A stretch of DNA of 64,000 nt from Anaerolineae bacterium (GCA_015490995.1 WFWT01000112.1:34272-98271); one strand, 5' to 3'. Counted from the first letter of the stretch, positions 1,197 to 33,995 are shown. Numbers and translations are program-made. The notes: generated by a model not told the origin, from the letters alone.

Positions 1197-2311
1197 TAGA
1201 GGTGTGCCTGCGTCACCACCTTCCAGGATTTGTGCTGGATGTCGCCTTCCACACTACGGCGGGGGTCACAGTTCTTTTCGGTCCTTCAGGCGCAGGGAAA
1301 TCGCTCACCCTCCGCGCGATTGCCGGTCTATTCCGCCCCCATGCCGGCCGTGTGGTTGTCCAGGGCGACACATGGCTCGATACCCAACAGAATGTCTGGA
1401 TCCCTCCCCAACGCCGGAAGGTCGGTTATGTGCCTCAGCATTATGGCCTTTTCCCTCACCTAACGGTGCGAGAAAACATCGCGTTTGGCCTGCGACGCTG
1501 GCCATCACACCAACGAACCGCACGCGTCGAGGAACTCCTCACCGTAATGCACTTGCGTGAGCTGGCCAACCGTTATCCTCGCGAGCTTTCGGGGGGACAA
1601 CAACAGCGGGTCGCCCTTGCCCGTGCCCTTGCTCCCCGACCCCATGTGCTACTACTGGACGAGGCGCTTGGCGCCCTAGATCCTGTCCTCCGAGAGCAGT
1701 TACGAGAGGAAGTGCGCCAGATTCAACGCCGCTACGCCATCCCGGTCATCCTCATCACCCACGACGTTCACGAAATGGCTGCCATGGCCGACAAAGTGGT
1801 CGCCATGCATCATGGCCGGGTAATCCAGGTAGCTCCCCCGGAGGAAATCTTCCGGCGTCCGGCAACGCCGGCTTTAGCTCGAGCAGTAGGAATGCGCAAC
1901 CTCTTGACAGGGACAATCCGACATCACACAGAAGACATTACAGAAATCGTATGGGCCGGCGGCACCCTTAAGGTCCCTCGGGTCCCTTATCCTCCTCATA
2001 CACCCGTTCAATTCGGCATTCGCCCCGAGGATGTGGTCTTTGTACGAGAAGATCGTCCCCTAAAGGCAGCGCACAATGTGTTAACCACTGTTATCGTTGG
2101 AGTTCATCCTGCAGCCTTTGACTATATTATCACCTTACAACTGGTGAACAACGCTTCAGTACACCTGTACGCTCGACTACCTCACCCTCTGGTACACGAA
2201 CTTCACCTTCGTCCCGGCCAGCAACGGCGAATCCTTCTGCGCCGACGGGCCATTCACATTTTCCCACCTGTCGAAGAAGCGCGCTCCTCTAAAGAAGAGG
2301 GGGCTTCCTGA
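1193..2311 (+). CDS. modC: Molybdate ABC transporter ATP-binding protein
   Basis: Walker A GPSGAGKS, signature LSGGQQQR, Walker B LLLDE, C-terminal TOBE-like region. Confidence 0.92.
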
Positions 2312-7539: not shown

Positions 7540-7711
7540 GTTCGTCACCTCCCGCGCTAAGTGTCCCTTACTCCCTGCGTTACTCCCTCGCAGGCCCAGT
7601 CCCGGTCCCAAAAGCACGTTGCAAAAGGCACTGTATTGGATGCACTTTATCCGAAAAAGTTTCACCCATCGAGGGGAGAAGGCCCCCGTTTTTCCCTGTT
7701 ACTGCCATCAC

Positions 7712-16600: not shown

Positions 16601-18302
16601 CGAAGAAAAGTTCGTAAAAGCGTGTGGTCATGGGATATCGCTCGGGTAACCGGGGGATGGTGCGGTACAATCGTCCGCTGGCAAAGATGTAGTAGTCCGC
16701 TTGGCGCAAGTTGTTCTTGATAATGTCGAATTTCTCAGGCGTATCTTCTTCGTACATCGGCATTGTCACGTACCGGTAACGGCCAGGATTCGCACCAGGT
16801 TCTGGCAATCCTAGGGGAAGACGGTCATCCCAGTGCTCCGTGGCCAAGACAGCGCCATCCGGCACGTTCTCGTAAATCCACCGCGATGCAACAATCCAGG
16901 GATGGGGTTGAGCGTATACGCCGTATAAGAAGGCGGCAGACCAAAACACCGCTTGCACGAGGGCCACGGCACCGACAATTGCCCCCCACCCCCCTCGACG
17001 GGCCAACCAGTCCCCGGCCCGTCGCCACAGACCTCCGGGCAAACGCTCCCTCGGCAAGGGAAGGCGTGAAAGGTCATACAACAGCGCAGTGCCAAAAAGG
17101 ATCAGTGAAGGCACGATAGGCAGGGTGTAACGCATGAATTTAGCCAGAAACAGCCCAGTGGGACCGAAGTAAAACACTACCCACGCCAACAACATCCATT
17201 CGCCAGGCCGCAGACGGCGTCGCACAGCACGCACGAACGCCCACCCCAGGCCCAACCATCCCAGCAATCCCAAGGCCCATCCCATTCCCCAGCGGATCGA
17301 TTGCTCCATGTGGTAAATGTACGGTCGGGTACCGCGATATTGCCGGGTAAAGGGGAAATCCGCGTCTCCCCGCACCATGGCGCCCTGCTCAACCAGAACA
17401 GCTTGTTTAAAGTTAGGCCAATCCAGGATTACGAAAGGCGAGGTCACGGCAAAGATTACCGCCGCAACCACCAAACAGAGCGCCACCAGAAGCGCGGGGT
17501 GGGGGCCGGGCCGATCGGCACGCCGCAACCATAACACCAACAGAGGTGCAATCACGATGGGCAAAGCGCTGAACTTACTGCCCACGGCCAAAGCTATCCC
17601 CACACCTGTGATCACGGCATCCCGAGGACGCCCCGTGTCAACCATGCGCATGGCCCCGTAAATGGCCAGCATCGTGAACGTGGTGGACATAGGATCCACC
17701 GCGAAAAAGTGCGCCAGCTGAATGTGGGTCACGGTGAAGGTGACAAAGGCCATTGCCAACCAGCCCCACCAGGGACCATAGAGGCGCCTGCCGATGAGGT
17801 ACACCAAGAAAACCGTAAACGTGTCTGCCAGCGCCATCAACAAGCGACCTACTACGGCCAGGCCAGGCACGTCATCCAGGCCGGCAATGTACATCACGGT
17901 CTCAGGAGGGGCCCCTAATACTTCCGCTAACGGAGCCAACCGGGCCACTGCCTTGGCGGTGAAGACAAGAAGATAAAGGGGAAAATGACCGTACGTGTAC
18001 GAGCGCCGTTGCTGAGCCACCCGGTCCCAAAGCGGGTTTAAGGGCGAACGCCGCGGATCTAGCGCTTCCTCCCAGGAGCTGGGCCACGCGATGGTAGGCG
18101 CGTAAAACGCAATCGTAGAACGCTCATCCGGGTGAGGGAGCTGACCATCGGCCCAATCCACGTTATACGCACGCAGGAAGAAGGCTACCAGCAACGTGAG
18201 GAGAACCAGCGTCGCGTGCCCCCACCCGTTCGGCAACGCTGTCGAACCCTTCCGTGGTGAATGTGCTGTCGTCCCCGTGTGTGCTCCGTCTCGTGCCATC
18301 AT
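13614..18302 (-). CDS. Large polytopic GT-C membrane protein: PMT/GT39-like N-half fused to DUF2298 (Chlor_Arch_YYY) C-half
   Basis: HPDER, YTYGHFPLYL and FPFTRQY in the N-half. GEKFME, PPYDPYFAGGTINYYYWG, INEFPFWSFLFADLHPH and RMNTLFKF in the C-half. Confidence 0.85.
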   Translation of the reverse strand: MMARDGAHTGTTAHSPRKGSTALPNGWGHATLVLLTLLVAFFLRAYNVDWADGQLPHPDERSTIAFYAPTIAWPSSWEEALDPRRSPLNPLWDRVAQQRRSYTYGHFPLYLLVFTAKAVARLAPLAEVLGAPPETVMYIAGLDDVPGLAVVGRLLMALADTFTVFLVYLIGRRLYGPWWGWLAMAFVTFTVTHIQLAHFFAVDPMSTTFTMLAIYGAMRMVDTGRPRDAVITGVGIALAVGSKFSALPIVIAPLLVLWLRRADRPGPHPALLVALCLVVAAVIFAVTSPFVILDWPNFKQAVLVEQGAMVRGDADFPFTRQYRGTRPYIYHMEQSIRWGMGWALGLLGWLGLGWAFVRAVRRRLRPGEWMLLAWVVFYFGPTGLFLAKFMRYTLPIVPSLILFGTALLYDLSRLPLPRERLPGGLWRRAGDWLARRGGWGAIVGAVALVQAVFWSAAFLYGVYAQPHPWIVASRWIYENVPDGAVLATEHWDDRLPLGLPEPGANPGRYRYVTMPMYEEDTPEKFDIIKNNLRQADYYIFASGRLYRTIPRLPERYPMTTRFYELFFAEQLGFVRVLDVTSYPRLGPFVFPDDDADESFWVYDHPRVLVYRKVRDLTDEEWNALLGGTWEGARHWYVPETFLQKLFRRLPFGNRPAPSPATPAEERKGPSLLLDRSFDEMPVVRYWRWNRWASEHTVPAVVLWWLAVLLIGLIAWPFSFVTFAWLEDRGYALSKALGLILVAYLAWIVPSLRVWINDLPLVVLVLVATAGASAWIARRFWRPWLTWMRHHWRLMLVYEGLFAVAYILFVFIRLLNPDLWQPWNGGEKFMEIAYLHATVRSPYFPPYDPYFAGGTINYYYWGYQIVNVLIKLTGITPAVAFNLAVPTLFALTVVAACGLVYNMVAGWARRVALYAGLAGGAFVALFGNPDGTVEILRNLAAASKTDFRSTLFPWLETLVRALDGLGRVWNGEVDLPKYNYWNPSRVIPFTINEFPFWSFLFADLHPHMMGIPFTLLFLGLALNVVMGAGRSWLEGRGDWPSPLEGDRQLVYGTAQFVALPLVLGALAVINTWDVPTYLGIAAVALFLRQWRGQGRVNLLRWIGQVGLILGGAFLLYRPFFVNYAPIAASGVGWEPQKTSLGVWLNMWALWVFLALSFLAVEVVQRDRLGLARWMRGVVVYYDRLPRFLWWHGRLVGSGSQEKGAGQLTAPVEQASRSPLAVVSSSVVVPSPLLLTPASRAGYALGRWLVGLSVPVAVLLWLAGYRVPALLVTPVIAFGVLTLRLTVPTGVVFASLLSFTALLVLLGVEFVYLKDHLQGGDFKRMNTLFKFFIQAWVLLASAAAVGLVRLWARLPRWQPLIRHLWQMAFAILVAASLTFVVVGTAARVDDRFPREISGRPPFGTLDGMAYMKYGVYTWPTPQHRIELVWDYEAIRWLLDNVPRVVPIAEARLDYYREGGTRVASFTGLPTFMGLHQMGEQRYGWQTGPRQQLALEFWNTSDIGRTLEIIREIDIHYIYVGQLERQQYPPEAIARFDRMVDAGLLKVVYENPGVRIYEVLEHPEQ

Positions 18303-18489
18303 GACCGTCGACCCGACACTCAGATGATAAGGAATGTGTAGGGGTTAACCGGGCTATCCCCTGGCCAACACCCTGCAGCCCGTATGGGAGATTATACGGC
18401 AGCGTTGCCCAGGGCTGAAAACCCAAGTCTGACTTCGCACTCCCGTCCGTCAGGAATATCCCTTTAGATTCTGTCGCCCTGTCGCTGTT

Positions 18490-18519
18490 TTGACGCCTTC
18501 TCCCCAAAGTAGGTAGAAT
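18490..18519 (+). promoter_or_regulatory. Putative sigma70 promoter for the kinase/regulator pair
   Basis: TTGACG-N18-TAGAAT. Confidence 0.55.
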
Positions 18520-18570
18520 CTACCCCACCCCACACACGATTCAGAGCACATATGGGGAGTTGAGACAATT

Positions 18571-19341
18571 ATGAAACCCGTGGCATCTCAACCATCGGTT
18601 GGGCCAGTGTCCAGTTCATCATCTGCTGGCGAAGAAAGTCCGGAGCAGACACTTTACGCCTTTGTGCTGGACATTCATGACGGTCTGGTACAAAACTTGT
18701 TCGCGGCGGCTTCACAAGTACACACTCTCCAGCGGCACCTCACGGGGAACCGGCCTATAGACATGACTACCCTGGAGGAAGGGCTTCAACGCATTGCCGA
18801 CCTGCTGGAAAGCTCCTTGTACGAAATACGCACCTTCGTTCACGCATTTGGCTCTCCGGACATTTACCATCGCGATTTCACTACTTTGGTACATGAACTG
18901 GCCGAACAGCGCCGCTCCATTACCGGTATGCAGGTGCACGTTACCATAACACCCTCCCTGCCCTCCTTGCCCCTCCCCACGCGCGTGGCCCTTTACCGCA
19001 TCCTCCAAGAAGCCCTGGCCAATGCCCACCGCCACGGCCAGGCCACCGACGTATGGGTTAAGCTGGCCTGTCATCCTCCGTTGCTCACCCTGGAGATTAG
19101 GGACAACGGCCAAGGCTTTGACCCAGAGCGTGTGCTCGCCTCTCCTCACATCGGAAAACACCTGGGATTACGAGGCATGCAGGAACGCGTCCAGGCCCTG
19201 GGAGGCACATTGGACATTACCAGTGCTCCCGGTCAGGGGACCACCATTCGTATCACTCTGCCGTGCTCGGAGGCAGAGAGCGCCCATGAGCAGGAAAGCA
19301 CACCCGCACCAAAAGCGCATTCGGGTCGTGCTCGCGGATGA
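18571..19341 (+). CDS. Soluble HisKA_3 + HATPase_c histidine kinase with no sensor domain
   Basis: H-box LDIHDGLVQNL, N-box RILQEALANAHRH, G-boxes IRDNGQGFD, LGLRGMQERV and SAPGQGT. Confidence 0.9.
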   Translation: MKPVASQPSVGPVSSSSSAGEESPEQTLYAFVLDIHDGLVQNLFAAASQVHTLQRHLTGNRPIDMTTLEEGLQRIADLLESSLYEIRTFVHAFGSPDIYHRDFTTLVHELAEQRRSITGMQVHVTITPSLPSLPLPTRVALYRILQEALANAHRHGQATDVWVKLACHPPLLTLEIRDNGQGFDPERVLASPHIGKHLGLRGMQERVQALGGTLDITSAPGQGTTIRITLPCSEAESAHEQESTPAPKAHSGRARG

Positions 19342-19942
19342 CCACGAGCTGGTCTTAGAAGGGCTGCGTTCCATTCTCCAGCACGAGCCCGACATTGAAG
19401 TAGTGGCCGCGGTCACCGACGGCGAGCAACTTTTGCGCGTCCTGCAAACTCATCGCCCGGACATGGTGGTTCTTGACCTTCGCATGCCCAAAATTGACGG
19501 CCTTGCCTGTTTACGCTTTATCCGGGAACACGGCCTGCCCACCCGAGTGCTGGTACTGACCGCCTTTGACGACCGGGAATCGGTACGAGCCGCCTTTGAA
19601 CTGGGCGCCGACGGCTTCGCGTTGAAGACCGATCCCCCTCAGTTAACCGTTGCCGCCATTCGCGAGGTGTACCACGACCGGATAGTCTTTCCCCGTCTCG
19701 CCGCGCGGTGGGTCATCCAGCGTCAAGAGCAAGCCTCCCCCCTCAAAGAACGCCTTTCCCCGCGGGAACAGGAAGTTCTCGCCCTGGTAGCTGAAGGACT
19801 TACCAACGCCCAGATCGCCCAACGACTGATGATCGGTGAGGAAACGGTCAAGTTTCACCTGCGCAACATTTACCAGAAACTAGGTGTCTCCACCCGCACC
19901 GAGGCCGCCGCCTATTACTACCGACATCTGGCCAAATCCTAA
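19286..19942 (+). CDS. NarL/LuxR-family response regulator
   Basis: VVLADDHELV, VLDLRMP, FALKT, HTH LSPREQEVLALVAEGLTNAQIA...TVKFHLRNIYQKL. Start at ATG 19286, overlapping the kinase. Confidence 0.95.
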   Translation: MSRKAHPHQKRIRVVLADDHELVLEGLRSILQHEPDIEVVAAVTDGEQLLRVLQTHRPDMVVLDLRMPKIDGLACLRFIREHGLPTRVLVLTAFDDRESVRAAFELGADGFALKTDPPQLTVAAIREVYHDRIVFPRLAARWVIQRQEQASPLKERLSPREQEVLALVAEGLTNAQIAQRLMIGEETVKFHLRNIYQKLGVSTRTEAAAYYYRHLAKS

Positions 19943-19994
19943 TTGACCCCAAGTCAACCTGTTATCCCCGCTTTTTGTAGTCCCCTGCAACGGA

Positions 19995-20062
19995 ACCCCC
20001 CAAATGGGGGGGCATGATCCCCCGGTATGGGTGTTGTGAAACGCGGCACGATCTGGTATATG
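19995..20062 (+). promoter_or_regulatory. CBB operon promoter with upstream palindromic candidate operators
   Basis: TTGTGA (20034-39)-N17-TATATG (20057-62) with TG extension. Palindrome CCCCCC-AAAT-GGGGGG (19996-20011) and a degenerate copy 22 bp downstream, abutting the -35. Confidence 0.55.
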
Positions 20063-20196
20063 CAAAAGAGCCAGGTGACCACGAACGGTCCCCTCACGAG
20101 GATGTCCGGGCCACCGTTTGTCCACGAGGCCATTCCTCCCTTCGTGTCACGCACGATGGCGCTTTCATCGTGATCTGATTCCACCGGAGGTGACCT

Positions 20197-21351
20197 ATGA
20201 GCCAGGAAATTACGCTTAGTGTCATCAAAGCGGACGTCGGCGGATGGGTCGGTCACTCGGCCATGCACCCGGAACTCGAACGCGCTGCCCGTGAGGTGCT
20301 TAGCGAGGGCAAACAACGTGGCATTCTGGTGGACTACCATGTCACCCACTGTGGGGATGACCTGGAGCTTATCATGACCCACACCCGGGGGGTGGAGCAC
20401 CGGGACGTGCACGAGTTGGCTTGGCGGGCCTTTGAGCGCGCAACGGAAGCAGCCCGCGACTTAAAGCTGTACGGTGCCGGGCAGGATCTGCTCTCTGATG
20501 CATTCAGCGGTAACGTGCGGGGTATGGGACCGGGCGTGGCTGAAATGACATTCGTAGAGCGTAAATCGGAAACCATTGTTATCTTTTTGGCGGACAAGAC
20601 CTCTCCTGGAGCCTGGAACCTGCCCCTATTTCGCATGTTTGCCGATCCTTTCAACACGGCCGGATTGGTTATCTCCCCCACCTTGCACCACGGATTTCGG
20701 TTCGAAGTACACGACGTGCGTGAAAACAAGCGCATCATCCTGGATTGTCCGGAAGAAATGTATGACCTGCTTATCTTCATAGGCGCGCCCAGCCGGTACA
20801 ACATCAAGGCTGTGTACAGTCGGGCCACCGGAGAAATCGCGGCCGTCTCCTCCACCGACCGTCTTTCCCTCATTGCCGGTCGCTATGTCGGAAAGGATGA
20901 CCCGGTCTGTATTGTGCGGTGCCAATCCCAATTTCCCGCGGTAGGCGAAGTACTGGAACCCTTCGCCTTTCCCCATGTAGTGGAGGGGTGGATGCGCGGT
21001 TCCCACCACGGACCGCTTATGCCTGTGTCGCAGCGAGAAGCCCGGCCCAGCCGCTTTGACGGCCCCCCACGGGTAATCGCGCTGGGCTTTCAGCTAGCGG
21101 AAGGTCGCCTTATCGGTCCTGTAGACCTATTTGATGATCCCAGTTTTGATCTGGCTCGCCGGCAAGCGAACCTTATCGCCGGCTATCTGCGACGTCATGG
21201 GCCCTTCGAACCTCATCGGCTCCCCATGGAAGAGATGGAGTACACCACCCTTCCAGACGTCATGTCTCGCTTGGCCGACCGGATGGAACCCCTGGACGGT
21301 CGCCAGCCTCTAACGCAACCCGCGCCGCAGCCGGAAATGGATGTGGACTAA
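20197..21351 (+). CDS. fbp: Bifunctional fructose-1,6-bisphosphate aldolase/phosphatase (class V, archaeal type)
   Basis: [41 protein letters not shown] (Schiff-base Lys), [30 protein letters not shown]. Confidence 0.96.
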
Positions 21352-21365
21352 TTGAGGAGAGCACC

Positions 21366-23396
21366 ATGGATCACTACAGCGTGGAACAGTTGTGCGTCAA
21401 CGCCATTCGAACCCTGACCATGGACGCGGTACAGCGGGCCAATTCGGGACACCCAGGTATGCCGATGGGCATGGCCGACGCGGCGTTTGTGTTGTGGGCC
21501 CACTTTCTAAAACACGACCCCCTACACCCGTCCTGGCCAAATCGGGATCGCCTCATCCTGTCTGCAGGGCACGGCTCCATGCTGCTGTACGCGCTCTTAC
21601 ACCTGAGCGGTGTGCTCACCTTAGAAGAACTGAAACAGTTCCGACAATGGGGCAGCCGCACGCCAGGACACCCCGAATATGGAGTGACACCGGGTGTGGA
21701 AACGACCACTGGCCCCCTGGGACAGGGGTTCGCCAACGGCGTTGGTATGGCCATAGCTGAGAGGTGGCTAGCAGAACACTTCAACCAACCTGGCTTTCCC
21801 GTGGTGGACCACTACACTTACGCAATTGTAAGCGATGGTGATCTCATGGAAGGCATATCCCATGAGGCCGCCTCTCTCGCCGGCCACCTGGGGCTCGGCA
21901 AGCTGATCTACCTCTACGATGCAAACCGCATCTCCATCGACGGTCCCACGGATCTCACCTTCACCGAGGATGTAGCGTCCCGTTTTCGAGCGTATGGGTG
22001 GCAAGTCCTCGAGGTAGACGGCCACGACCGGGAAGCGGTGGCTCAAGCCATCACAACGGCCCAAGCAGACAGGGAGCATCCCAGCCTGATCATCTGTCAC
22101 ACGCATATCGCTTTTGGCAGTCCCAACAAACAGGATACCGCTGCCGCCCACGGCGCTCCCCTGGGCGAGGAAGAGGTTCGACGGACCAAAGAGAACCTAG
22201 GGTGGCCTGTCACTCCACCTTTTTACGTCCCCGAAACGGTGTACGCTTACTTCCGAGAGCGAGCTCACACTTGGAAAGCAGCTCGCACCACATGGGAAGA
22301 ACTCTTCAAGGCTTACACCAAGACACATCCGGAGCTGGCTGCTCAACTTCATGCTGCTTGGACAGGTCAGCTACCTGCCGGTTGGGAGGAAGTACTCCCC
22401 ACCTTTACTCCGGGCACGATGATGGCGACGCGCAGCGCCTCGGGCAACGTTCTGAACGCTATCGCTGCCCGACTTCCTACCCTTATTGGTGGATCGGCGG
22501 ACCTCTCGGGCTCTAACAAGACGTATCTCTCCGCTTATTCTCCTCTACAACGGCACGACTTTCAAGGCCGAAACATACACTTCGGGGTACGGGAGCACGC
22601 GATGGGCGCCATCCTGAACGGTATGGCCCTTCATGGCGGTGTCCGTCCTTACGGAGGGACCTTCCTCGTCTTTTCCGACTACATGCGCCCGGCTATCCGC
22701 ATGGCCGCGTTGATGGCGCTACCGGTAATATTCGTTTTCACCCATGACAGCATCTTTGTAGGCGAGGATGGGCCCACGCACCAACCGGTAGAACATCTGC
22801 TGGCCCTGCGTGCCATTCCCAACCTGGTCGTCATCCGACCGGCTGACGCGATTGAAACGGCGGCTGCCTGGCGCGTGGCTCTGCACCGGCGCACAGGTCC
22901 CACGGCACTGGTGCTAACCCGGCAGAAGGTGCCGGTCATTGACCATCACGCGCTCAAGAGCCCGGTGGCCGTCATGCGGGGAGCATACATCTTGGCACGT
23001 GAACCTGGTAATCACCCTGACCTTATCCTTATTGCCTCCGGTTCAGAAGTAGCCCTTGCCCTAGCAGCCTGGAAACGCTTGATTGCTGACGGCGTTCAAG
23101 CTCGGGTGGTAAGCATGCCTTCATGGGAACTGTTCGCCGAGCAACCACCTGCCTATCAAGCCGAGGTACTACCCTCCACCGTCCGGGCCCGAGTAGCTAT
23201 CGAAGCCGGTCTCTCGCTGGGTTGGGAACGCTATGTGGGACCAGAAGGTACCGTCATCAGTGTGGAACGGTTTGGTGCTTCGGCACCCTATCAGGTCATG
23301 GCAGAAAAGTTCGGCTTTACCGTGGACAACGTGCTCACCCACGCCTATCGTGTGCTGCAGGCCACCCATGCCCCTGCCGTGAAAATTCCCGGATAA
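21366..23396 (+). CDS. tkt: Transketolase
   Basis: [45 protein letters not shown]. Confidence 0.97.
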
Positions 23397-23413
23397 CCGG
23401 AGGGAGGTGAACT

Positions 23414-24091
23414 ATGCGCATCTTTCTTGACACCGCCAACCTGGATGACATTCGTGAAATCGCCCGGTGGGGCATTATCTCAGGCGTCACCACCAACCCC
23501 ACTCTCCTCGCACGGGAAGGGAAAAACGTGCGGGACGTGATTGTGGAGATTTGTGAGATCGTTAACGGACCGGTCAGCATGGAAGTAGTCTCCACCGACG
23601 CTGAAGGTATGGTCCGAGAAGCACGGGAGTACGTCACTTGGCATCCCAACGTGATTATCAAGATTCCCATGATCCCGGAGGGATTGGCAGCAACAGCCAT
23701 CCTGGCCCGGGAAGGTATCCAGGTCAACATGACCCTGATCTTTAACCCCAACCAGGCCCTTTTCGCCGCTTTGGCCGGTGCCGCCTACGTTAGCCCATTC
23801 TTGGGACGCCTAGACGACATATCTACCGAGGGGATGGACCTAATCCGTGAAATTGTGGCCGTGTTCCGCCAGGATGCGCATCTGGACACGCAGATTTTGG
23901 CCGCGTCGCTGCGGCATCCACGGCACCTGGTAGAAGCGGCCAAGGCCGGCGCGGATGTGGCTACCTGTCCACCGGCTGTCATCCGGAAGGCGCTCAAACA
24001 TCCTCTCACCGATATCGGTCTGGAACGCTTCCTGAACGACTGGCGCCAACTTGAGGCTACCCTCACACGGGAAGTAGCCCGTGTGTCGTGA
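23414..24091 (+). CDS. tal: Transaldolase (short FSA/TalC-type fold, transaldolase signature)
   Basis: [18 protein letters not shown] (Schiff-base Lys). Glu in VSMEV and Phe in YVSPFLGR are the residues that distinguish Tal from F6P aldolase (Gln/Tyr). Confidence 0.92.
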
Positions 24092-24164
24092 TACTGAACC
24101 CGACATGTGGTTATCACCCATGATGTTTACAACAAACGCAATGGTTTAACAGGAGGATGGTGAC

Positions 24165-25592
24165 ATGACGCAGAAGTTCGAGCAGCTCTATGATGCCGGG
24201 GTTAAGCCGTACAGCGAGTCGGGCTACCTGGATCTGGACTACACGCCCGGCCCTCATGATGTGCTTGCTGCCTTTCGTATCACACCCCAGCCTAACGTGT
24301 CCTGGGAGGAAGCTGCCGCTGCTGTGGCGGCGGAGTCCTCGTTTGCTACGTGGACCCAAGTGTGGTCCGACTACTTAGTGGACGGCGACCAGTATAAGGC
24401 ACGCGTGTACGAGATTAAGCCCATCCCCGGACGCGATCACCAGTTCATAGCTTACATCGCCTATCCCCTCGACCTGTTCGAGGAAGGATCGCTGCCAAAC
24501 CTTATGTCCTCGCTGGTGGGCAACGTGTTCGGCTTCAAACCGCTACGGGCCCTGCGCTTGGAGGACTTGTACTTCCCTCCTGCGTACTTGAAGACATTCC
24601 AAGGCCCCCCACACGGTATTCAGGTTGAGCGAGACAAGCTAAACAAATACGGCCGTCCCCTCCTCGGAGGAACCATGAAGCCCAAGTTAGGGCTATCAGC
24701 CAAAAATTACGGCCGATTGATATACGAAGCACTTCGAGGGGGACTGGACTTTACAAAAGACGACGAAAACATAACCTCCCAGCCCTTTATGCGATGGCGT
24801 GACCGATACGAGATCGTGATGGAGGCGGTTCACAAGGCCGAAGCAGAGACCGGTGAACGCAAAGGGCATTACTTAAATGTCACAGCCCACACCATGGAGG
24901 AAATTTACAAGCGCGCGGAATTCGCCAAGGAATTGGGGGCCCGCATCATTATGGTGGACTACCTGATTATCGGTTTCACCGCGTTCACCTCCTTGTCCAA
25001 GTGGTGCAGGGAAAACGGTCTACTTCTCCACGCCCACCGAGCCTTCCACTCGGTGATCGACCGCCATCCCGATCACGGCATTCACTGGCGCGTCCTGGCC
25101 AAATGGTGTCGCATCGTAGGGGCAGACCATGTCCACAATGGGACGGTGGTGGGCAAGCTGGAGGCTGATCGTGCGTCCACCATCGCCATCAACAAAATGC
25201 TCCGTGACCCTTACGTGCGCGCGGAGGACGCTCCGGGATTTCACTTCGACCAGCCATGGCTTTCCATGCCCGGCATGTTCCCTGTCGCCTCGGGAGGCAT
25301 TCACGTGTGGCACATGCCCGAACTGGTGCACATCTTTGGGGACGACGTGGTGCTCCAGTTCGGCGGCGGCACTGTGGGGCATCCCTGGGGCAGCGCGGCC
25401 GGCGCTACCGCCAACCGTGTCGCGCTGGAAGCGGTGATTAAAGCCCGTAATGAGGGTCGCGACCTGCTCCGTGAAGGCCGCGATATCCTCCTAGAGGCCG
25501 CACGCCACAGTCCCGAACTGCGAGTAGCCCTGGAAACCTGGAAGGATGTCACTTTCGATTACGAAACCGTGGATAAACTAGTGACTGTGTGA
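24165..25592 (+). CDS. rbcL: Form I Rubisco large subunit
   Basis: [57 protein letters not shown] aggagg. Confidence 0.98.
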
Positions 25593-25606
25593 ACAGGAGG
25601 TGCGCT

Positions 25607-25930
25607 ATGCCACGCCGTGCAGGAACCTTTGCCTATCTTCCCCCGTTGACTCGGGAAGAAATTGCCCGTCAGGTCAAATACATCCTCCAGCAGGGTTGGA
25701 TTCCCGGCGTGGAATTCGCCCGGGAAGAGGAAGTGGATGACGACTTTCGCCATTGGTGGAAACTGCCCCTCTTTAATGCCCGGTCTGTCGAAGAGGTCAT
25801 GGCCGAGGTGGAAGCCTGTCGCGAGGCCCACCCCGACTGTTACATCTTCGTCACCGGGTACAACCCCCATCAACAACACCTTAAACTGGACTTTGTCGCC
25901 TATTACCCCTCAAGTACCTCGCGCGACTGA
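25607..25930 (+). CDS. rbcS: Rubisco small subunit
   Basis: GTFAYLPPLT, QVKYILQQGWIPGVEF, WWKLPLF, EVEACREAHPDCYI. ATG 25607 with RBS aggagg. Confidence 0.95.
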   Translation: MPRRAGTFAYLPPLTREEIARQVKYILQQGWIPGVEFAREEEVDDDFRHWWKLPLFNARSVEEVMAEVEACREAHPDCYIFVTGYNPHQQHLKLDFVAYYPSSTSRD

Positions 25931-25957
25931 GTCCGGAGGAACGAAAGGAGGGCATAC

Positions 25958-26896
25958 ATGGCGCGACGACCGATCATCTTAGGGGTGGTGGGAGACAGCG
26001 CGGCGGGCAAAACCACCCTTTCACGGGGTATTCGCGAGTCCATCGGTGCCGACCGAGTAACTATTATCTGCACCGACGACTATCACAAGTACAACCGCAA
26101 GCAACGTAAGGAACTGGGCATCACCGCGCTCCACCCCGATTGCAACTACATTGATATCATCGAACAACACCTGCGCTTGCTACGGGAGGGTCAGCCCATT
26201 CTCAAGCCGGTGTACAACCACAGCACGGGGGACTTCGATCCCCCAGAATACGTGCAACCTACGGAGTTCATTATCGTGGAAGGGTTACTGGCTTATCACA
26301 CCCGTGCAATGCGCGAATGTTTTGACGTTAAGGTCTATCTTGACCCTCCCGAGGATCTACGGCGCATCTGGAAAATCCGGCGCGACACTGCCAAGCGCGG
26401 TTACACCGTCGAACAAGTACTAGAAGCCCTACGCAAGCGGGAACAGGATTCCGCCCAGTTCATTCGGCCGCAACGCCGGTACGCGGACATCGTGGTGCGA
26501 TTTTACCCACCCGATGGTCTCTCCCCTAAGGAGGCGAACGGCCATTTGAACGTGCGTCTGGTGTTGCGGCCGACCATCCCCCACCCGGACATGACAGACC
26601 TGCTGGCATATGCCGGTTCCCCAAACCAGGGCCCCATCCGCCTGGTGCTGGGTCGGGATGAAGGCCGCCCGGTTGATTTCCTGGAAATTGACGGCAACAT
26701 TGCCCCGCGACAAGCGGAAGAGCTGGAGCACCTGATTTGGGGACACATGCCCCCCGATATTCGCCTCCGCCCCGAGCGGTTGGGTATCTACATGAACGGC
26801 ACACGTGAAGAACGCAGTTATCCCCTTGCTCTGGTGCAACTGTTACTCGCGTACCATATGTTCGTCGCACGGGACATGCCCCACATGGTGCGTTAA
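25958..26896 (+). CDS. prk: Phosphoribulokinase
   Basis: GVVGDSAAGKTT, ICTDDYHKY, ITALHP, KPVYNHSTG, WKIRRDTAKRGY. Located in the rbc operon. Confidence 0.93.
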   Translation: MARRPIILGVVGDSAAGKTTLSRGIRESIGADRVTIICTDDYHKYNRKQRKELGITALHPDCNYIDIIEQHLRLLREGQPILKPVYNHSTGDFDPPEYVQPTEFIIVEGLLAYHTRAMRECFDVKVYLDPPEDLRRIWKIRRDTAKRGYTVEQVLEALRKREQDSAQFIRPQRRYADIVVRFYPPDGLSPKEANGHLNVRLVLRPTIPHPDMTDLLAYAGSPNQGPIRLVLGRDEGRPVDFLEIDGNIAPRQAEELEHLIWGHMPPDIRLRPERLGIYMNGTREERSYPLALVQLLLAYHMFVARDMPHMVR

Positions 26897-26923
26897 GGAG
26901 CCTATCCAACAGGGCGTGAAACG

Positions 26924-27658
26924 ATGAACGCCACAGAACACTTGAAACAACAGGCAGCACAGTATGCCGTACGCCACTACGTCGAGGACCACATGATAGT
27001 GGGCTTGGGCACGGGCTCCACTGCCCGATACGCGCTGGAAGCTATTGCTGCACGGCGGGCCGCAGGGGAACTCCAGCATATTCTCGGTGTGCCCACCTCC
27101 CAAGCGACTGCCCGTCTGGCCCGCAAGCTGGATATCCCGTTGACTACCTTAGAAGCACACCCGGTGATCGATGTAACTATCGACGGGGCAGATGAGGTAG
27201 CTCCTGACCTAAGTCTCATCAAAGGCGGGGGTGGGGCCCTATTATGGGAAAAAATTGTTGCCCTCGCCTCTCATCGGCGGGTCATCGTCGTGGATGAGAG
27301 TAAACGGGTAGACCGCCTGGGCACTCGTATTCCATTGCCTGTAGAAGTGGTGCCTTTTGGATGGCGCACCCTGTGGCCTTTCCTGGAGGGGCTCGGGGCT
27401 ATCCCCCGACTGCGAATGCGTTCACTGGAGGGTAAGGAACTCCCCTTCACCACGGATAGCGGCCATTATATCATCGACTGCGAGTTTCCCGAGGGTATTG
27501 TCGATCCTCAACCACTGGCTGAAACGCTGAAGGCCCAAGTGGGTGTGGTGGAACATGGGCTCTTCCTGAACATTGCTACCGAGGTGATAGTGGCCACATC
27601 TCAAGGGATAGAGGTGATGCGTCATGGTGAAATTAGCGCCCTCCATTCTGTCCGCTGA
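26924..27658 (+). CDS. rpiA: Ribose-5-phosphate isomerase A
   Basis: GLGTGST, IDGADEV, IKGGGGALLWEK, GVVEHGLF. Confidence 0.97.
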   Translation: MNATEHLKQQAAQYAVRHYVEDHMIVGLGTGSTARYALEAIAARRAAGELQHILGVPTSQATARLARKLDIPLTTLEAHPVIDVTIDGADEVAPDLSLIKGGGGALLWEKIVALASHRRVIVVDESKRVDRLGTRIPLPVEVVPFGWRTLWPFLEGLGAIPRLRMRSLEGKELPFTTDSGHYIIDCEFPEGIVDPQPLAETLKAQVGVVEHGLFLNIATEVIVATSQGIEVMRHGEISALHSVR

Positions 27659-28316
27659 CTTTTCCCGACTGGGCGAACAGGTGCAGGAAGCCATTGCTGC
27701 CGGGGCGGACTGGCTCCACGTCGACGTAATGGACGGCCACTTTGTGCCCAACCTGACCATTGGTCCCTTGGTGGTAGAAGCTATCCGCCCCTTGGCCCAG
27801 GCCCACAACGTTCCCCTGGACGTACACCTGATGATCGAAACACCGGAACGATACATTCAAGCCTTCGCACAAGCGGGTGCGAACATTTTGACCGTACAAG
27901 TCGAGGCATGCGTCCACCTGCATCGCACGGTGCAAGCCATCAAAGAGGCCGGCATGCAGGCAGGTGTTGCCCTGAACCCCGCTACCCCCCTGATAGCCGT
28001 GGAGGAGATCCTTCCGTTTATTGACGTCCTCCTCATCATGTCGGTAAATCCGGGATTTGGGGGCCAGACATACATTCCTACCAGTACCGCGAAGATCGCT
28101 CGGGCGCGCGCGATGATCGACCGACAGGGGCTTGCCGTGGAGTTGGAAGTGGATGGCGGAGTAAAAGCACACAACGCTGCTCAGATAGCACGGGCCGGGG
28201 CAACGGTACTGGTGGCAGGCTCGGCCATCTTCAACAAGGAACGCTCCGTTGCCGAGAACATGACAGCAATTCGTCAAGCCCTGGCCGAGGTAGACAGCCG
28301 TATCCTGAACCTCTGA
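27624..28316 (+). CDS. rpe: Ribulose-phosphate 3-epimerase
   Basis: APSILSADF, HVDVMDGHFVPN, DVHLM, MSVNPGFGGQ, EVDGG. Confidence 0.97.
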   Translation: MVKLAPSILSADFSRLGEQVQEAIAAGADWLHVDVMDGHFVPNLTIGPLVVEAIRPLAQAHNVPLDVHLMIETPERYIQAFAQAGANILTVQVEACVHLHRTVQAIKEAGMQAGVALNPATPLIAVEEILPFIDVLLIMSVNPGFGGQTYIPTSTAKIARARAMIDRQGLAVELEVDGGVKAHNAAQIARAGATVLVAGSAIFNKERSVAENMTAIRQALAEVDSRILNL

Positions 28317-28342
28317 TCACCAATACACTCCTCAAATAATGG

Positions 28343-30001
28343 TCATAAAGACCGCACCATGTACAATTCCCTCAACTCAAAGCCTAGGCGCCGGTAATAA
28401 TTGCGCGTCCCAATCGCTGCGATAACGCCTATCTCCCGGTAGCCCGCTTCCCGAGCAATGGCCATGGCCTGTGCGATCAAGCGGCGCCCTAGCCCACTGT
28501 GCTGGGCCTCTCCTTCCCCATCCGTCCCCAGGGGCAAGGCTGGCCCATACACGTGGACCTCACGGATCATAGCCGCGTGACGGATTTCTTCCACAGGCAC
28601 CACGTCTGGCGTCTGGGGAAGGGCCAACCGCAAAAAACCGGCTATTCGATTCTCGGGGGTCACAAAGGAAAGGAAGTATTCTCGCGTCACATCCGTCTCA
28701 TACGTGAGAACATCCAACCGCAACGTCGCGGGATCCACCCGCTGATGACGTATCTCCCGACATCGAATACATTGACACTGCATGCCTCGTTCGGCCATGT
28801 AAGCATGAACCAATTGTCGCAAATTGGTTTTCTTGTTCCCTGCCACAATGTGAGGCGTTGGAATGTCTCGAAATACCCGGTTAATGCGACAATAACGGGG
28901 GACCTGTGTCTTGCACCGCGCGATGAGGTCAACCAAGACCTGTTCCTCATAGGGTTGATACTTGCCCTCCAGCCAATACTGATACAGTTCGGTGTTTTCC
29001 AGCAGCGAAGTGGGATAAATTTTCAACTCGTCCGGACGGATGGCCGGGTCCTTCCAGAGGCGGAGGAAGTCTTCATAGTCGGATGCGGGAGTCGCACCGT
29101 ACAGGTTGGCCATCCAGTGGACCACGATCTTAAACCCTGCAGCTCGCAGAAGCCGAATCGCTCGTCGAGTATCTTCAACCGTGTGCCCTCGCTTGTTCAG
29201 GGCCAATATGCGATCATCCAGGCTCTGCAACCCAAGTTGTACCTTGGTTACTCCCAAACGACGCAACCGTACAATCTCGCGAGGGGAGATAGCATCCGGA
29301 CGGGTTTCAATAACCAGACCCACATTGCGATGGGGTGCTGTCTCGTTTAGGCGTTGGGCTTCCTCGAGGGAAGCCGCTTCCACCCCGTTCATGGCATCAA
29401 AGCACCGCTTGATAAACCATTCCTGATAATCTCGCGGATACGCAGACCACGTCCCCCCGAGGATAAGCAATTCCACCTTGCTGGCATCATGCCCTATCGC
29501 CTCGAAAGCACGAATACGGCTTAGAGTTTGTCGATAGGGGTCGAACTCGTTCTGAAGGGCCCGCTGGGCACCCGGTTCATCAGGGACATAACTCTTGGGC
29601 ATGTTAATAAACGTCGGGCAAAAAATGCACTTGCCCGGACAAGGGTACGGCTTGGTGAGGACGGTCACTGGTGCAACACCTGAGCTGGTACGTACCGGCT
29701 TGCGTTGCAAGCGCCGGAGGAACTCTCGGTCAAAGGGCAAGGCTCCTTCAGCGACCAATGCCCGATATCCACTCACAACCTCCGTTTTACTAGGCACATA
29801 TCCGGTATGTCGAGCATACCGGCGGGCCACGCGAGCATATACATCAGAGCCAGATGCGTCCCCTTCTTCCCAGGCCGCACGCAGTACCTCTAACAAGAGC
29901 GCTTTGTTCAACACTACCGTGCGTTCTACTCGCTCGCGCGAGGACCAGCTCAGCACCTCCATAATATACGTCTCTCCCGTTCTCCCAATCGGTCTCCTCA
30001 A
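28343..30001 (-). CDS. Elp3-family tRNA uridine(34) acetyltransferase (radical SAM + GNAT)
   Basis: PVRTSSGVAPV, CPGKCIFCP, IETRPD, PDELKIYP, CQCIRCRE, IREVHVYG, QHSGLG, RNYYRRLG. True start may be ATG 29962. Confidence 0.93.
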   Translation of the reverse strand: MRRPIGRTGETYIMEVLSWSSRERVERTVVLNKALLLEVLRAAWEEGDASGSDVYARVARRYARHTGYVPSKTEVVSGYRALVAEGALPFDREFLRRLQRKPVRTSSGVAPVTVLTKPYPCPGKCIFCPTFINMPKSYVPDEPGAQRALQNEFDPYRQTLSRIRAFEAIGHDASKVELLILGGTWSAYPRDYQEWFIKRCFDAMNGVEAASLEEAQRLNETAPHRNVGLVIETRPDAISPREIVRLRRLGVTKVQLGLQSLDDRILALNKRGHTVEDTRRAIRLLRAAGFKIVVHWMANLYGATPASDYEDFLRLWKDPAIRPDELKIYPTSLLENTELYQYWLEGKYQPYEEQVLVDLIARCKTQVPRYCRINRVFRDIPTPHIVAGNKKTNLRQLVHAYMAERGMQCQCIRCREIRHQRVDPATLRLDVLTYETDVTREYFLSFVTPENRIAGFLRLALPQTPDVVPVEEIRHAAMIREVHVYGPALPLGTDGEGEAQHSGLGRRLIAQAMAIAREAGYREIGVIAAIGTRNYYRRLGFELRELYMVRSL

Positions 30002-30233
30002 CCCCTCGCTCTGGTCTTCACCTTCCTCCCCTGACTGACAATAAATAATATCCGGGATTCCTCTAAAAGGAAAACGCGGAGAAGGACTAAACTCGGTGCG
30101 TTTTTACCTTTCGTAAAGCTATTCTGTTTGGCTTCTGCTAGGCAGGCCATGTAAACTGTCTTTGGCGGCATTGAAATCGCCGCCCGAGCAAAGGGAACCG
30201 TTCTGGCCTTATCAGCGGACGGAGGAGGCATCA

Positions 30234-31427
30234 ATGTGGCAGGATGACAGCGTGGTCATTGCCGGTGCGGCCCGTACGCCTATTGGCCGCTTTCTGCGCT
30301 CCCTCAGCTCCCTACACGTGACCGATTTGGGGGCTACGGCCATTAGAGCAGCGGTTGAACGGGCGGGCATTGAACCTCACCTCATCGATGAGGTCATTAT
30401 GGGCAACGTGGTCCAGGCTGGCGCGGGCATGGCGCCGGCCCGCAACGCGGCCTTGAAGGCCGGCCTGCCCCCTTCAGTAGGCGCGGTTACCATCAATAAA
30501 GTGTGTGGTTCCGGCCTAAAAGCCGTTATGATGGCCGCGAATGCCATTCGCAGTAGCCAGGGTGATATTTACGTGGTGGGCGGTATGGAGAGCATGAGCC
30601 AGGGGCCGTATCTCATCCCCAAGGCCCGAACAGGATACCGCATGGGCCATGGAGAGCTGCTTGATGCAACGGTCCACGATGGTCTGTGGAGCGCGTGGGA
30701 GAACCTGCACATGGGGCAGGCAGCAGAATGGATTGCGGCCAAGTACGGTATTTCCAGGGAAGAACAAGACGCCTTTGCCCTGGAAAGCCACGCCCGTGCT
30801 GTCGCTGCCCTGCGCGCGTGTCGATTTCAGGAGGAAACGGTGCCCGTGATCATTCCCCAGAAAGAAGGCACGTCCCTCACCGTGGACACTGATGAATGCC
30901 CTCGACCGGACACATCTCTGGCCAAATTGGCCAGTCTTCCCCCGGCATTTCAGGAAGACGGCACCGTTACTGCAGGTAACGCTCCCCCCCTCAGCGACGG
31001 TGCTGCCGCGCTGGTGGTAATGAGTGGCCGCACAGCCCGGGTGTTAGGCGTTACTCCCCTAGCCCGCATTCTCGGTTACACCCAGGCAGCTGTGGAGCCC
31101 ATCGCTCTCTTTACGGCACCGGTTTACGCGATTCGCCGTTTATGGGACCGCCTGGACATGGATCGAGAGGCATTTGACCTCTACGAGATCAACGAAGCTT
31201 TCGCAGCCCAGATGTTGGCAAACCTGCGCGAGCTGGAACTGGACCCCCGTCGAGTTAACGTCAACGGAGGTGCCATCGCCTTAGGCCACCCTATCGGTGC
31301 CAGCGGAGCACGCATCCTGGTAACCCTGGTCCATGCCCTCCGGCAGAGAGGATTACGCCGGGGCATTGCAGCCCTCTGTCTCGGGGAGGGCGAAGCGGTT
31401 GCCCTTGCTATAGAAATCATACATTAA
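30234..31427 (+). CDS. Acetyl-CoA C-acetyltransferase (thiolase)
   Basis: [26 protein letters not shown]. Start at ATG 30234 with RBS ggagga. Confidence 0.95.
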
Positions 31428-31448
31428 GGCCCTTGGGAGGAAAACACC

Positions 31449-32201
31449 ATGGCGCAACCAGGCCGCCTTGAAGGCAAAGTGGCCATCATTACCGGTGCAG
31501 CTCGAGGCATTGGTCTCGCGACAGCCCGCATCTTCGCCCGTGAGGGCGCGCGGGTCGTCCTGGCAGATATCAATGCAGCCGACGGGGAAGCAGCCGCTGC
31601 GGAAATCCGCCAAAACGGCGGAGAAGCCCTTTTCATTCCCGTAGATGTCACCAATCCTACCCTGGTCCAGAAAATGGTCAACCAGGTTATGGAGACTTAT
31701 GGCCGTATCGACATTCTGGTCAACAACGCAGGAGTGTTGCGCGATCGCACTTTACTGAAGATGAGCGACGAGGAATTTGACTTCGTTATCAACGTGAACC
31801 TAAAAGGGGTTTACTACTGTACCCGCGCTGTAGCACCCATTATGGTGGTTCAGCGCAGTGGAGTTATCCTGAACGCTTCTTCCGTGGTGGCCCTGTACGG
31901 TAACTTCGGCCAGACCAACTATGTAGCTGCAAAGGCCGCGGTGCTTGGCATGACTCGCGTGTGGGCCCGTGAACTGGGCCCCAAAGGGGTCCGGGTCAAT
32001 GCGGTCGCTCCTGGATTCATTCGCACAGAGATGACCGCAAACCTTCCTCAGGAAGTTGTCCAAATGGTCATAGAACGTACCCCGCTGCGCACCTGGGGTA
32101 CACCGGAAGATGTGGCTTACGCTTACCTGTACCTCGCCTCTGACGAAGCCCGATTTGTCAACGGCGCCGTGTTAAGCGTGGACGGCGGGGTTGTGGTATG
32201 A
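31449..32201 (+). CDS. 3-oxoacyl-ACP/CoA reductase (FabG/PhaB-like SDR)
   Basis: TGAARGIG, NNAGV, GNFGQTNYVAAKA, VAPGFIRTEM. Confidence 0.9.
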   Translation: MAQPGRLEGKVAIITGAARGIGLATARIFAREGARVVLADINAADGEAAAAEIRQNGGEALFIPVDVTNPTLVQKMVNQVMETYGRIDILVNNAGVLRDRTLLKMSDEEFDFVINVNLKGVYYCTRAVAPIMVVQRSGVILNASSVVALYGNFGQTNYVAAKAAVLGMTRVWARELGPKGVRVNAVAPGFIRTEMTANLPQEVVQMVIERTPLRTWGTPEDVAYAYLYLASDEARFVNGAVLSVDGGVVV

Positions 32202-33293: not shown

Positions 33294-33995
33294 ATGGTAA
33301 GACACCTGGTACTATTTGACATTGATGGCACATTGCTCCACACCCACGGCGCCGGTCGCCGTGCGATGCGTCGCGCGCTGGTGGCCATTTACGGCACGGC
33401 TGGCCCCATCGATCACTACAATATGGCCGGCAAAACCGATCGCCTCATCATCCACGACTTACTTAGCGTTGAAGGGGTTCCGCTTTCCATCATTGCAGAA
33501 CGTTTTCCCATGTACACAGAAGCTTATACCGAAGCCCTGGAGCAAGAACTCCGGCAGCACCCCCCAGAAATTCTGCCCGGTGTACCCCATTTGCTGAACC
33601 GCTTACGCCAGCGTGCGGATGTGGTGCTCGGCCTGCTCACGGGCAACTTGGTGCCAGGCGCCCGCCTGAAACTGCAATACGCGGGGTTGAACCCGGATAT
33701 CTTTGTCATCGGTGCCTTTGGCAGTGATGCCTTATCGCGGGACGCGTTGCCGCCCATTGCTCTGCACCGGGCTCGTCAACACGTGGGCCACGCGTTTACC
33801 GGCCGCACGGTCGTTATTGTGGGGGATACTCCGCTGGACATTTTGTGTGGGCGCGCTGTGGGGGCCAAAAGTGTGGCCGTAGCTACCGGACCTTACTCCG
33901 GAGATGAACTGCAAGCGTTTACCCCGGATGTGATCCTCCCCAACCTGGCCAACGTAGAACGTGCAGAGCACGCCATTCTGAATGGCCGTCCGTAG
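33294..33995 (+). CDS. HAD-superfamily hydrolase
   Basis: LFDIDGTLL, GLLTGN, IVGDTPLDI. Confidence 0.88.
   Translation: MVRHLVLFDIDGTLLHTHGAGRRAMRRALVAIYGTAGPIDHYNMAGKTDRLIIHDLLSVEGVPLSIIAERFPMYTEAYTEALEQELRQHPPEILPGVPHLLNRLRQRADVVLGLLTGNLVPGARLKLQYAGLNPDIFVIGAFGSDALSRDALPPIALHRARQHVGHAFTGRTVVIVGDTPLDILCGRAVGAKSVAVATGPYSGDELQAFTPDVILPNLANVERAEHAILNGRP

Follow-up and report, generated by a model that had tools for sequence, protein, structure and literature searches.

A form I Rubisco operon with its own transaldolase and FBP aldolase/phosphatase in an Anaerolineae genome without glpX

The window analysed here is a stretch of 64,000 nucleotides, positions 34272-98271 of contig C112 of G000, an Anaerolineae genome whose 3.04-Mb assembly comprises 150 contigs, with 99.02% completeness and 1.82% contamination. 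At 20197-28316 on the plus strand it harbours an operon of eight co-directional open reading frames (ORFs), fbpA/P-tkt-tal-rbcL-rbcS-prk-rpiA-rpe, in which a form I Rubisco and phosphoribulokinase (PRK) are accompanied by a transaldolase (Tal) and an archaeal-type fructose-1,6-bisphosphate (FBP) aldolase/phosphatase (FBP A/P). The gene for GlpX, the class II fructose-1,6-bisphosphatase (FBPase), which ordinarily acts on both fructose-1,6-bisphosphate and sedoheptulose-1,7-bisphosphate, has been lost from the same genome, so that no FBPase other than FBP A/P is recognisable there and no dedicated route to sedoheptulose-7-phosphate (S7P) other than Tal. With modest confidence, it is proposed that the regeneration phase of this Calvin cycle runs as a reverse non-oxidative pentose-phosphate pathway, in which FBP A/P would supply fructose-6-phosphate (F6P) and Tal would form S7P, such that GlpX became dispensable and was lost.

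The operon and its enzymes

Gene identities were assigned from Pfam and NCBIfam profile matches to the ORFs of the window, and the eight genes lie exactly where, and in the order in which, an earlier note on this DNA had placed them. The first, fbpA/P (20197-21351), encodes a class V FBPase matching PF01950 (618 bits) and the equivalog model NF041126 (604.5 bits, cut-off 520), the latter across residues 5-359 and hence at full length. Its product aligns end to end with ST0318 of Sulfolobus tokodaii (3r1m, 532 bits), reading RYVGKDDP where ST0318 has KYVGKDDP, and so keeps the Y-x-x-K-D-D motif; the KYVGKDD segment is taken here to hold the conserved tyrosine and Schiff-base lysine of FBP A/P. 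This gene is followed by tkt, encoding a transketolase (21366-23396; TIGR00232, 912 bits), tal, encoding a short transaldolase of 225 aa (23414-24091; PF00923 and TIGR00875, 299.8 bits), and rbcL, the form I Rubisco large subunit gene (24165-25592; NF003252, 745 bits, cut-off 438). The 113 aa small subunit is encoded by rbcS (25589-25930; PF00101, E 1.8e-30), which has a GTG start and overlaps the rbcL stop by 4 nt. The remaining genes are prk (25958-26896; NF005655, 423 bits, cut-off 236), starting 27 nt past rbcS, rpiA for ribose-5-phosphate isomerase A (26924-27658; NF001924, 255.9 bits) and rpe for ribulose-phosphate 3-epimerase (27624-28316; TIGR01163, 293.5 bits), all on the plus strand. 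Successive intergenic distances from fbpA/P through rpe are 14, 17, 73, -4, 27, 27 and -35 nt. No gene for GlpX, for a class I or class II aldolase or for a sedoheptulose-1,7-bisphosphatase (SBPase) lies inside the operon.

True transaldolase residues (Glu and Phe) had been claimed for Tal in the earlier note, and an alignment to Escherichia coli FsaA (from NC_000913.3) agrees, as Glu57, Lys83 and Phe129 of the operon protein stand where this fructose-6-phosphate aldolase (FSA) has Gln, Lys and Tyr. Glu, Lys and Phe occupy the same positions in the second Tal of G000 and in the operon Tal of a related genome, G003; the Glu/Gln and Phe/Tyr positions presumably separate Tal from FSA chemistry. 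The best solved relatives of the operon protein are likewise transaldolases, from Thermotoga maritima (1vpx, 262.8 bits), Thermus (1wx0), Thermoplasma (3s0c) and Bacillus subtilis (3r8r), and E. coli FSA (1l6w) scores 116 bits. TIGR00875 bears the NCBIfam label 'fructose-6-phosphate aldolase', a name also attached to close public homologues of the operon Tal; because Glu and Phe replace the Gln and Tyr of FSA, this label is probably wrong for the operon enzyme. Some 30 public Tal proteins show 71-99% identity (P0002-P0030), and no names were obtained for 10 close Tal relatives looked up by cluster.

The RbcL sequence contains the DFTKDDEN motif with the catalytic lysine and aligns over its full length with solved form I enzymes. 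Its best PDB match is 7qsw (844 bits), which we take to be a reconstructed ancestral form I Rubisco with a small subunit, while scores of approximately 726-752 bits are found against cyanobacterial and form IA solved enzymes and approximately 620-630 bits against red-type enzymes. In a quick tree, as opposed to a careful maximum-likelihood search, with RbcL fragments of < 400 aa (G148) excluded, it groups with Anaerolineales and Saprospiraceae metagenome-assembled genomes (MAGs; SH-aLRT 100) in a clade lying outside IA+IB and outside the main Chloroflexota Rubisco clade, the branching order of the three being unsettled. In that tree it branches inside neither form IA nor form IB. The identities of the genes accord with the reading of the earlier note, that of a form I enzyme with large and small subunits in a complete Calvin cycle fixation and regeneration operon with transaldolase and FBP A/P.

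G000 is a metagenome-type assembly, with the number of contigs and level of contamination given above, and the gene order might in principle be an artefact of assembly or binning that joined genes of different organisms; this is extremely improbable. The operon region is tiled by Logan contigs of four DNA runs, all from a single study, which bridge its gene junctions. Single contigs cross fbpA/P-tkt (X1 record 2 and X2 record 11), tkt-tal (X3 record 21), tkt-tal-rbcL (X1 record 6) and the whole segment that starts at rbcL and extends beyond rpe (X1 record 8, and X2 records 15 and 16). Run X1 may be the source sample of the G000 assembly, and the bridging by contigs from other runs argues against an artefact. 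So too does the independent appearance of tal beside rbcL, both in G003 and in the metagenome contig L182, in which a tal of 92% identity is followed by an rbcL of 98% identity. The 64-kb window is even in GC content, and the 113.9-kb contig on which the operon lies also bears the housekeeping genes for SMC and LeuRS, with Anaerolineae-named relatives. The assembly of the operon is not a chimera.

Second copies elsewhere in the genome

When the eight proteins were compared with the whole of G000 by tblastn, five of the genes were found to be duplicated elsewhere, such that the operon carries its own paralogs of each. The second copies are fbpA/P on contig C19 (78% identical to the operon copy), tkt on C30 (67%), a short housekeeping tal on C40 (52%), and rpiA and rpe, both on C56 (54% and 69%, respectively). 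Matches covering less than 40% of the query were left uncounted here and at the other Chloroflexota form I loci considered below, the limit being 50% at the genome-contig loci anchored on RbcL and 30% at the metagenome Tal loci. By contrast with these duplicated genes, rbcL, rbcS and prk are single-copy, the prk search having matched, apart from prk itself, just a uridine-kinase-like gene with 35% identity. Every housekeeping copy of FBP A/P in the family to which G000 belongs is 75-78% identical to the operon copy; these copies are 79-95% identical among themselves, and the operon FBP A/P sits just outside their clade. The operon-type Tal is 51-55% identical to the short housekeeping Tals of the family and, among the family genomes, is confined to G000 and G003.

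The genes gap, pgk and tpi, which the earlier note had expected to lie elsewhere, are found together in a single cluster on contig C69. The tpi of this cluster scores 319 bits; another gene of the TIM family, on C96 (11445-12170; L121), is more diverged and scores 191 bits. G000 and G001, a genome of the same genus, have short Tals only; a single frame of around 950 aa with a Tal domain, probably a fusion of Tal to phosphoglucose isomerase, was observed in Rubisco-less relatives (loci L169-L173 and L168, listed under G002, G006, G007, G008, G003 and G011).

Loss of glpX

A genome-wide search for glpX, fbp and fba, as the earlier note had suggested, found no match in G000 to GlpX, to class I FBPase, to class III FBPase or to class II aldolase, and did reveal a LacD-like class I aldolase, considered below. 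As regards the absences, the outcome exceeded expectation. The corresponding search for class I aldolase with PF00274 is uninformative, since the control matched none of 14 genomes and the absence of a match in G000 therefore says nothing. Of the 27 Chloroflexota genomes with Rubisco that were examined, all but G000 encode GlpX (26 of 27), G001 and G003 among them. None of the 27 has a class I FBPase, and FBP A/P occurs in four of them, with two copies in G000 alone. The GlpX of G003 has only chance tblastn matches in G000 (best E 0.39) and no blastn match, and the genes that flank glpX in G003 abut one another on contig C99 of G000, in unbroken sequence free of N. The gene has been deleted at its syntenic site.

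Related Rubisco loci

Form I Rubisco is found in three of the nine genomes of the family, G000 included; a form I-like RbcL is found in 26 of 401 Chloroflexota genomes, a tally that includes the unpublished G310. G003, from another genus of the family, has the order histidine kinase - response regulator - tkt remnant - tal - rbcL - rbcS - prk, in which the Tal adjoining rbcL is 89% identical to that of the window. The remnant, a 213 aa ORF between the response regulator and tal (L101:10302-10943), consists of the transketolase C-terminal domain only, with 69% identity to residues 552-657 of the window's tkt product; it looks like what is left of a decayed operon tkt, fbpA/P having apparently been lost entirely.

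A survey of MAGs for the gene order had been another suggestion of the earlier note. The tal-rbcL pair recurs in G003 and L182, whereas outside the family neither tal nor fbpA/P lies beside rbcL at any of 80 genome-contig loci anchored on RbcL relatives, or at any of 21 other Chloroflexota form I loci. Likewise, among 80 metagenome loci anchored on relatives of Tal, rbcL was found in L182 only. Within the Rubisco clade of G000, glpX forms part of the cluster at three of the five non-family loci, namely L010 (an Anaerolineales MAG), L012 (a Saprospiraceae MAG) and G231; immediately before rbcL, where G000 and G003 have tal, L010 and G231 have glpX. These three clusters resemble the window's operon in encoding an RbcL 77-81% identical to its own and in keeping the rbcL-rbcS-prk...rpe order, but differ in containing glpX and in that their fetched flanks hold neither tal nor FBP A/P, whereas G000 has no glpX anywhere.

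Two further observations concern other arrangements of these genes. At 14 of the 80 metagenome Tal loci (L186, L187, L188, L191, L193-L196, L201-L203, L207, L213 and L234), a PRK-like gene lies 12-740 nt behind a tal of 59-62% identity; three of these PRK-like genes were scanned and scored 195.8, 190.2 and 234.9 bits on NF005655 (cut-off 236), far above uridine kinase scores; no Rubisco gene lies within the fetched flanks of the 14. In G011, from another family of the same class, reaction-centre L/M genes (L264/L265; C17:147456-149096) accompany a form I Rubisco (L103) that is 64-65% identical to that of the window, and this organism is likely to be a phototrophic autotroph of the class Anaerolineae.

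A proposed cycle and its alternatives

In the proposed cycle, for which gene content is observed and fluxes are inferred, the products of the gap-pgk-tpi cluster would supply triose phosphates. The operon FBP A/P would condense glyceraldehyde-3-phosphate (GAP) with dihydroxyacetone phosphate (DHAP) and dephosphorylate the product within the one enzyme, yielding F6P irreversibly, twice for every three CO2. Transketolase would convert one F6P and GAP to erythrose-4-phosphate (E4P) and xylulose-5-phosphate (Xu5P), and the operon Tal would then combine the second F6P with E4P to give S7P and GAP, replacing both the aldolase that forms sedoheptulose-1,7-bisphosphate (SBP) and SBPase. A further transketolase reaction would turn S7P and GAP into ribose-5-phosphate and Xu5P, from which RpiA, Rpe and PRK would regenerate ribulose-1,5-bisphosphate. 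The operon would on this account be self-contained, joining a form I Rubisco of the RbcL8S8 type and PRK to a private copy of the whole regeneration branch. A more far-reaching version is put forward tentatively, with slightly more doubt than belief: that the cycle is heat-adapted, obligately SBP-free and hard-wired in one operon, with the operon FBP A/P as its sole regeneration phosphatase and Tal making all of the S7P. The three sister genomes would record a stepwise replacement of the GlpX-type FBPase/SBPase, G001 having just glpX, G003 Tal and glpX, and G000 the operon FBP A/P and Tal, with glpX gone.

A number of observations weigh against these proposals. The 'SBP-free regeneration' of the earlier note is consistent with the dedicated Tal and the missing GlpX and class I and III FBPases, and the claim that there is no class I or class II aldolase is true within the operon, but genome-wide the latter fails and the former is not proven, as G000 encodes a LacD-like class I aldolase (C130:33724-34716; L001:1429-2418) that matches NF009498 with 317.5 bits (cut-off 184). 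The best solved relatives of this protein are a DUF2090 protein and tagatose-1,6-bisphosphate aldolases. Its gene is found in eight of the nine family genomes and in none of four genomes of other families, the opposite of the distribution of the class II aldolase (none of the nine and three of the four), on account of which it is probably the family's working glycolytic FBP aldolase; such a role is not implied by its label, 'tagatose-1,6-diphosphate aldolase'. G000 also has four proteins of the inositol monophosphatase (IMPase) family, all below the FBPase/IMPase cut-off, and one phosphofructokinase (PFK), placed by NCBIfam in the mixed/ATP-PFK subfamily, with the motifs GGDDT and PKTMDND, which we take to be those of the pyrophosphate-dependent type. 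Classical FBP aldolases, like FBPases of the GlpX type, as a rule act on SBP as well as on FBP. Pyrophosphate-dependent PFKs, according to one review, reversibly interconvert S7P and SBP in several organisms (PMC12203962). Since the LacD-like aldolase, the PFK and the four IMPase-family proteins have been kept, the cycle could still run through SBP. Either FBP A/P would also condense E4P with DHAP and dephosphorylate SBP, one enzyme thereby standing in for the FBP and SBP aldolases, FBPase and SBPase, or the LacD-like aldolase would make SBP and its 1-phosphate would be removed by PFK in reverse, an IMPase or FBP A/P; in either case Tal would only balance pools. The divergence of the operon FBP A/P from the housekeeping clade would leave room for a changed specificity. 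Such a cycle is nevertheless considered rather unlikely: the candidate SBP enzymes are neither in the operon nor duplicated, the LacD-like gene instead being flanked by groEL and an M24 peptidase gene; the diverged operon Tal would be superfluous; and G003 retained tal beside rbcL while tkt decayed. No paper describing FBP A/P accepting E4P and DHAP, or SBP, was found within an incomplete coverage of the literature, and FBP A/P is not known to have such an activity, a point that can be held against this alternative as well as against the proposed cycle. The remaining difficulties for the latter come from the genomes themselves. An additional relevant gene may lie on an unbinned contig, given an assembly of 150 contigs with 1.82% contamination; the operon-type Tal does not by itself imply an SBPase-free cycle, because it is found together with GlpX in G003; and in G001, of the same genus as G000, the order is amidase - rbcL - rbcS - prk - rpiA - rpe - gap, with no operon-type Tal or second FBP A/P in the 92%-complete assembly.

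A further point against the proposed cycle is that limited searches of G000 brought to light no clear lithoautotrophic or phototrophic energy module. Reaction-centre L/M genes are absent from it, the only match to NiFe hydrogenase is a 461 aa frame covering two ends of the model, with no full-length uptake type, and a form I CO dehydrogenase was rejected, the best CoxL-like match scoring 779 bits against a cut-off of 991. It is therefore conceivable, if somewhat unlikely, that the operon is real but supports no autotrophic growth, acting as a redox sink or in the re-assimilation of CO2 under mixotrophic or heterotrophic conditions, with tal a passenger in a tkt-tal pentose-phosphate block recruited along with Rubisco. 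Adjacent tal and tkt are indeed found at 7 of the 80 metagenome Tal loci, which indicates that such blocks exist apart from Rubisco, and the distribution of form I Rubisco in the family is patchy. Against this, only three families of energy genes were searched, making their absence weak evidence; the cbb operons of facultative autotrophs show the same combination of a complete private regeneration set with PRK and form I Rubisco; through the loss of glpX, FBPase function is tied to the copies of FBP A/P, one of which is in the operon; and the retention of tal without a full tkt in G003 argues against a mere passenger. The transaldolase-based cycle proposed here could be tested directly with the eight genes plus those for GAPDH, PGK and TPI, and the locus raises a clean biochemical question in whether FBP A/P acts on SBP.

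Relation to described systems

A transaldolase-type Calvin cycle with form III Rubisco was reportedly shown by experiment in Thermodesulfobium acidiphilum (Frolov et al. 2019, PNAS). This is the one experimental case of such a cycle, those with form I Rubisco resting on arguments of the kind 'SBPase gene not found'. Reportedly, and according to two papers that cite the work (PMC13374853, PMC12999727), T. acidiphilum resembles G000 in being a thermophile with Rubisco and PRK but without SBPase, in which transaldolase forms S7P from F6P and E4P. It differs in that its form III Rubisco has no small subunit and its cycle is known from experiment, whereas the case of G000 is made from genes alone, with form I Rubisco, RbcS, and tal and an FBP A/P paralog in the operon.

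The form I cases are closer in the type of Rubisco. For Ktedonobacteria, a transaldolase-variant cycle with a form I ('IG') enzyme has been inferred (ISME Commun 2026, PMC13374853); these are, like G000, Chloroflexota with form I RbcL and RbcS, in which no SBPase or GlpX-SEBP was detected and a transaldolase bypass was invoked. Their cluster is given there as cbbR(x2)-rbcLS-activase-gapA-prk, with LysR regulators and a tal that is not co-localised, whereas G000 belongs to the class Anaerolineae, has tal, tkt, rpiA, rpe and FBP A/P in the operon and has a NarL-type pair upstream. The ktedonobacterial Rubisco is described there with a red-type activase, while the RbcL of G000 scores higher against green-type than against red-type enzymes. 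Similarly, in form I' Anaerolineales (Banda et al. 2020, via PMC9802188), Rubisco co-occurs with PRK, GAPDH, transaldolase and FBPase, which has been taken as a sign of autotrophy. The likeness to G000 lies in the class and in Rubisco accompanied by PRK, transaldolase and FBPase, and the differences are the lack of a small subunit, a co-occurrence at the level of the genome rather than an operon and, in the text of PMC9802188 that could be consulted, no mention of FBP A/P. Thiobacillus thioparus DSM 505 (2017, PMC5248467) likewise has form I Rubisco, and its possession of tal without an SBPase gene led to the conclusion that its cycle is of the transaldolase-variant type. This is a mesophilic betaproteobacterium with carboxysomes and CbbO/Q; its tal is not described within the Rubisco cluster, and it has no FBP A/P.

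The earlier note's 'undescribed system' is thus too strong, given that form I transaldolase-type cycles are in print (PMC5248467, PMC13374853) and that the co-occurrence of the genes has been reported (PMC9802188). The cycle type is already known; what was found in no paper, within an incomplete coverage of the literature that did not extend to supplements, is an operon-embedded tal with FBP A/P, or a documented loss of glpX. The present locus offers a sharper genetic case, in that Tal and the only recognisable type of FBPase are private paralogs in a form I Rubisco operon and glpX has been deleted where 26 of 27 genomes have it. Furthermore, the operon would be a compact regeneration module, probably stable to heat, that might serve in the design of synthetic CO2 fixation.

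Host and habitat

The thermophilic Chloroflexota host that had been suggested for this DNA is supported on both counts, thermophily being probable. All named homologues of SMC are from Anaerolineae, Anaerolineales or Chloroflexota. The IVYWREL fraction over 1858 long ORFs of G000 is 0.4405, which would correspond to approximately 78 C by a rough formula, and hydrothermal-vent metagenomes, all of one study, make up the runs that contain half or more of the operon's sampled words.

Upstream regulators and neighbouring genes

Immediately before the operon, on the same strand, lie genes for a short histidine kinase (18571-19341; Pfam HisKA_3 and HATPase_c) and a response regulator of the NarL/LuxR family (19286-19942; Pfam Response_reg and GerE, and NarL-like families of NCBIfam), the start of the latter being inferred, as its longest ORF begins at 19022. 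The kinase is a probable sensor partner of the regulator. Its ortholog in G003, 54% identical, occupies the same place ahead of the Rubisco cluster, while the best paralog in its own genome is 33% identical; the corresponding values for the response regulator are 71% and 43%. Judging from this conserved position, control of the operon probably falls to the NarL-type pair, where a CbbR of the LysR type would be usual; a Rubisco operon would here have a two-component regulator. Scans of 18300-30200 were uninformative, with 8 promoter-like sites (expectation 4.5 +/- 2.2), all of them outside the 254-nt gap that precedes fbpA/P, and 15 terminator-like sites (expectation 10.1 +/- 3.2). No RNA runs are listed among those containing the operon, which says nothing on its transcription.

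Convergent on the end of the operon is a gene (28343-30001, minus strand) for an Elp3-type radical SAM/GNAT tRNA-modification enzyme (TIGR01211, 527 bits), of a family that is mainly archaeal and eukaryotic. Beyond it, at 30162-32201 on the plus strand, genes for a thiolase and a short-chain dehydrogenase are adjacent, as in acetoacetyl-CoA/polyhydroxybutyrate-type pathways; in G001, a short-chain dehydrogenase gene directly follows gap at the end of the Rubisco cluster. A HAD hydrolase at 33294-33995 was considered as a phosphoglycolate phosphatase and rejected, there being no such NCBIfam match at E 1e-10. Further from the operon, all on the minus strand, the window encodes an aldehyde:ferredoxin oxidoreductase (2254-4155; AFOR_N and AFOR_C, 445 bits), an enzyme typical of anaerobic thermophiles, and a fusion of a metallo-beta-lactamase fold to rhodanese (6082-7665), which has a weak match to Blh and resembles persulfide dioxygenase/sulfurtransferase fusions, and which may represent a link to sulfur metabolism. 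The same strand carries genes for a 1562 aa membrane protein with DUF2298 and PMT_2 domains (13614-18302) and a 1737 aa protein with BNR/YCF48-like, CBM96 and glycoside-hydrolase-like parts (43553-48766).

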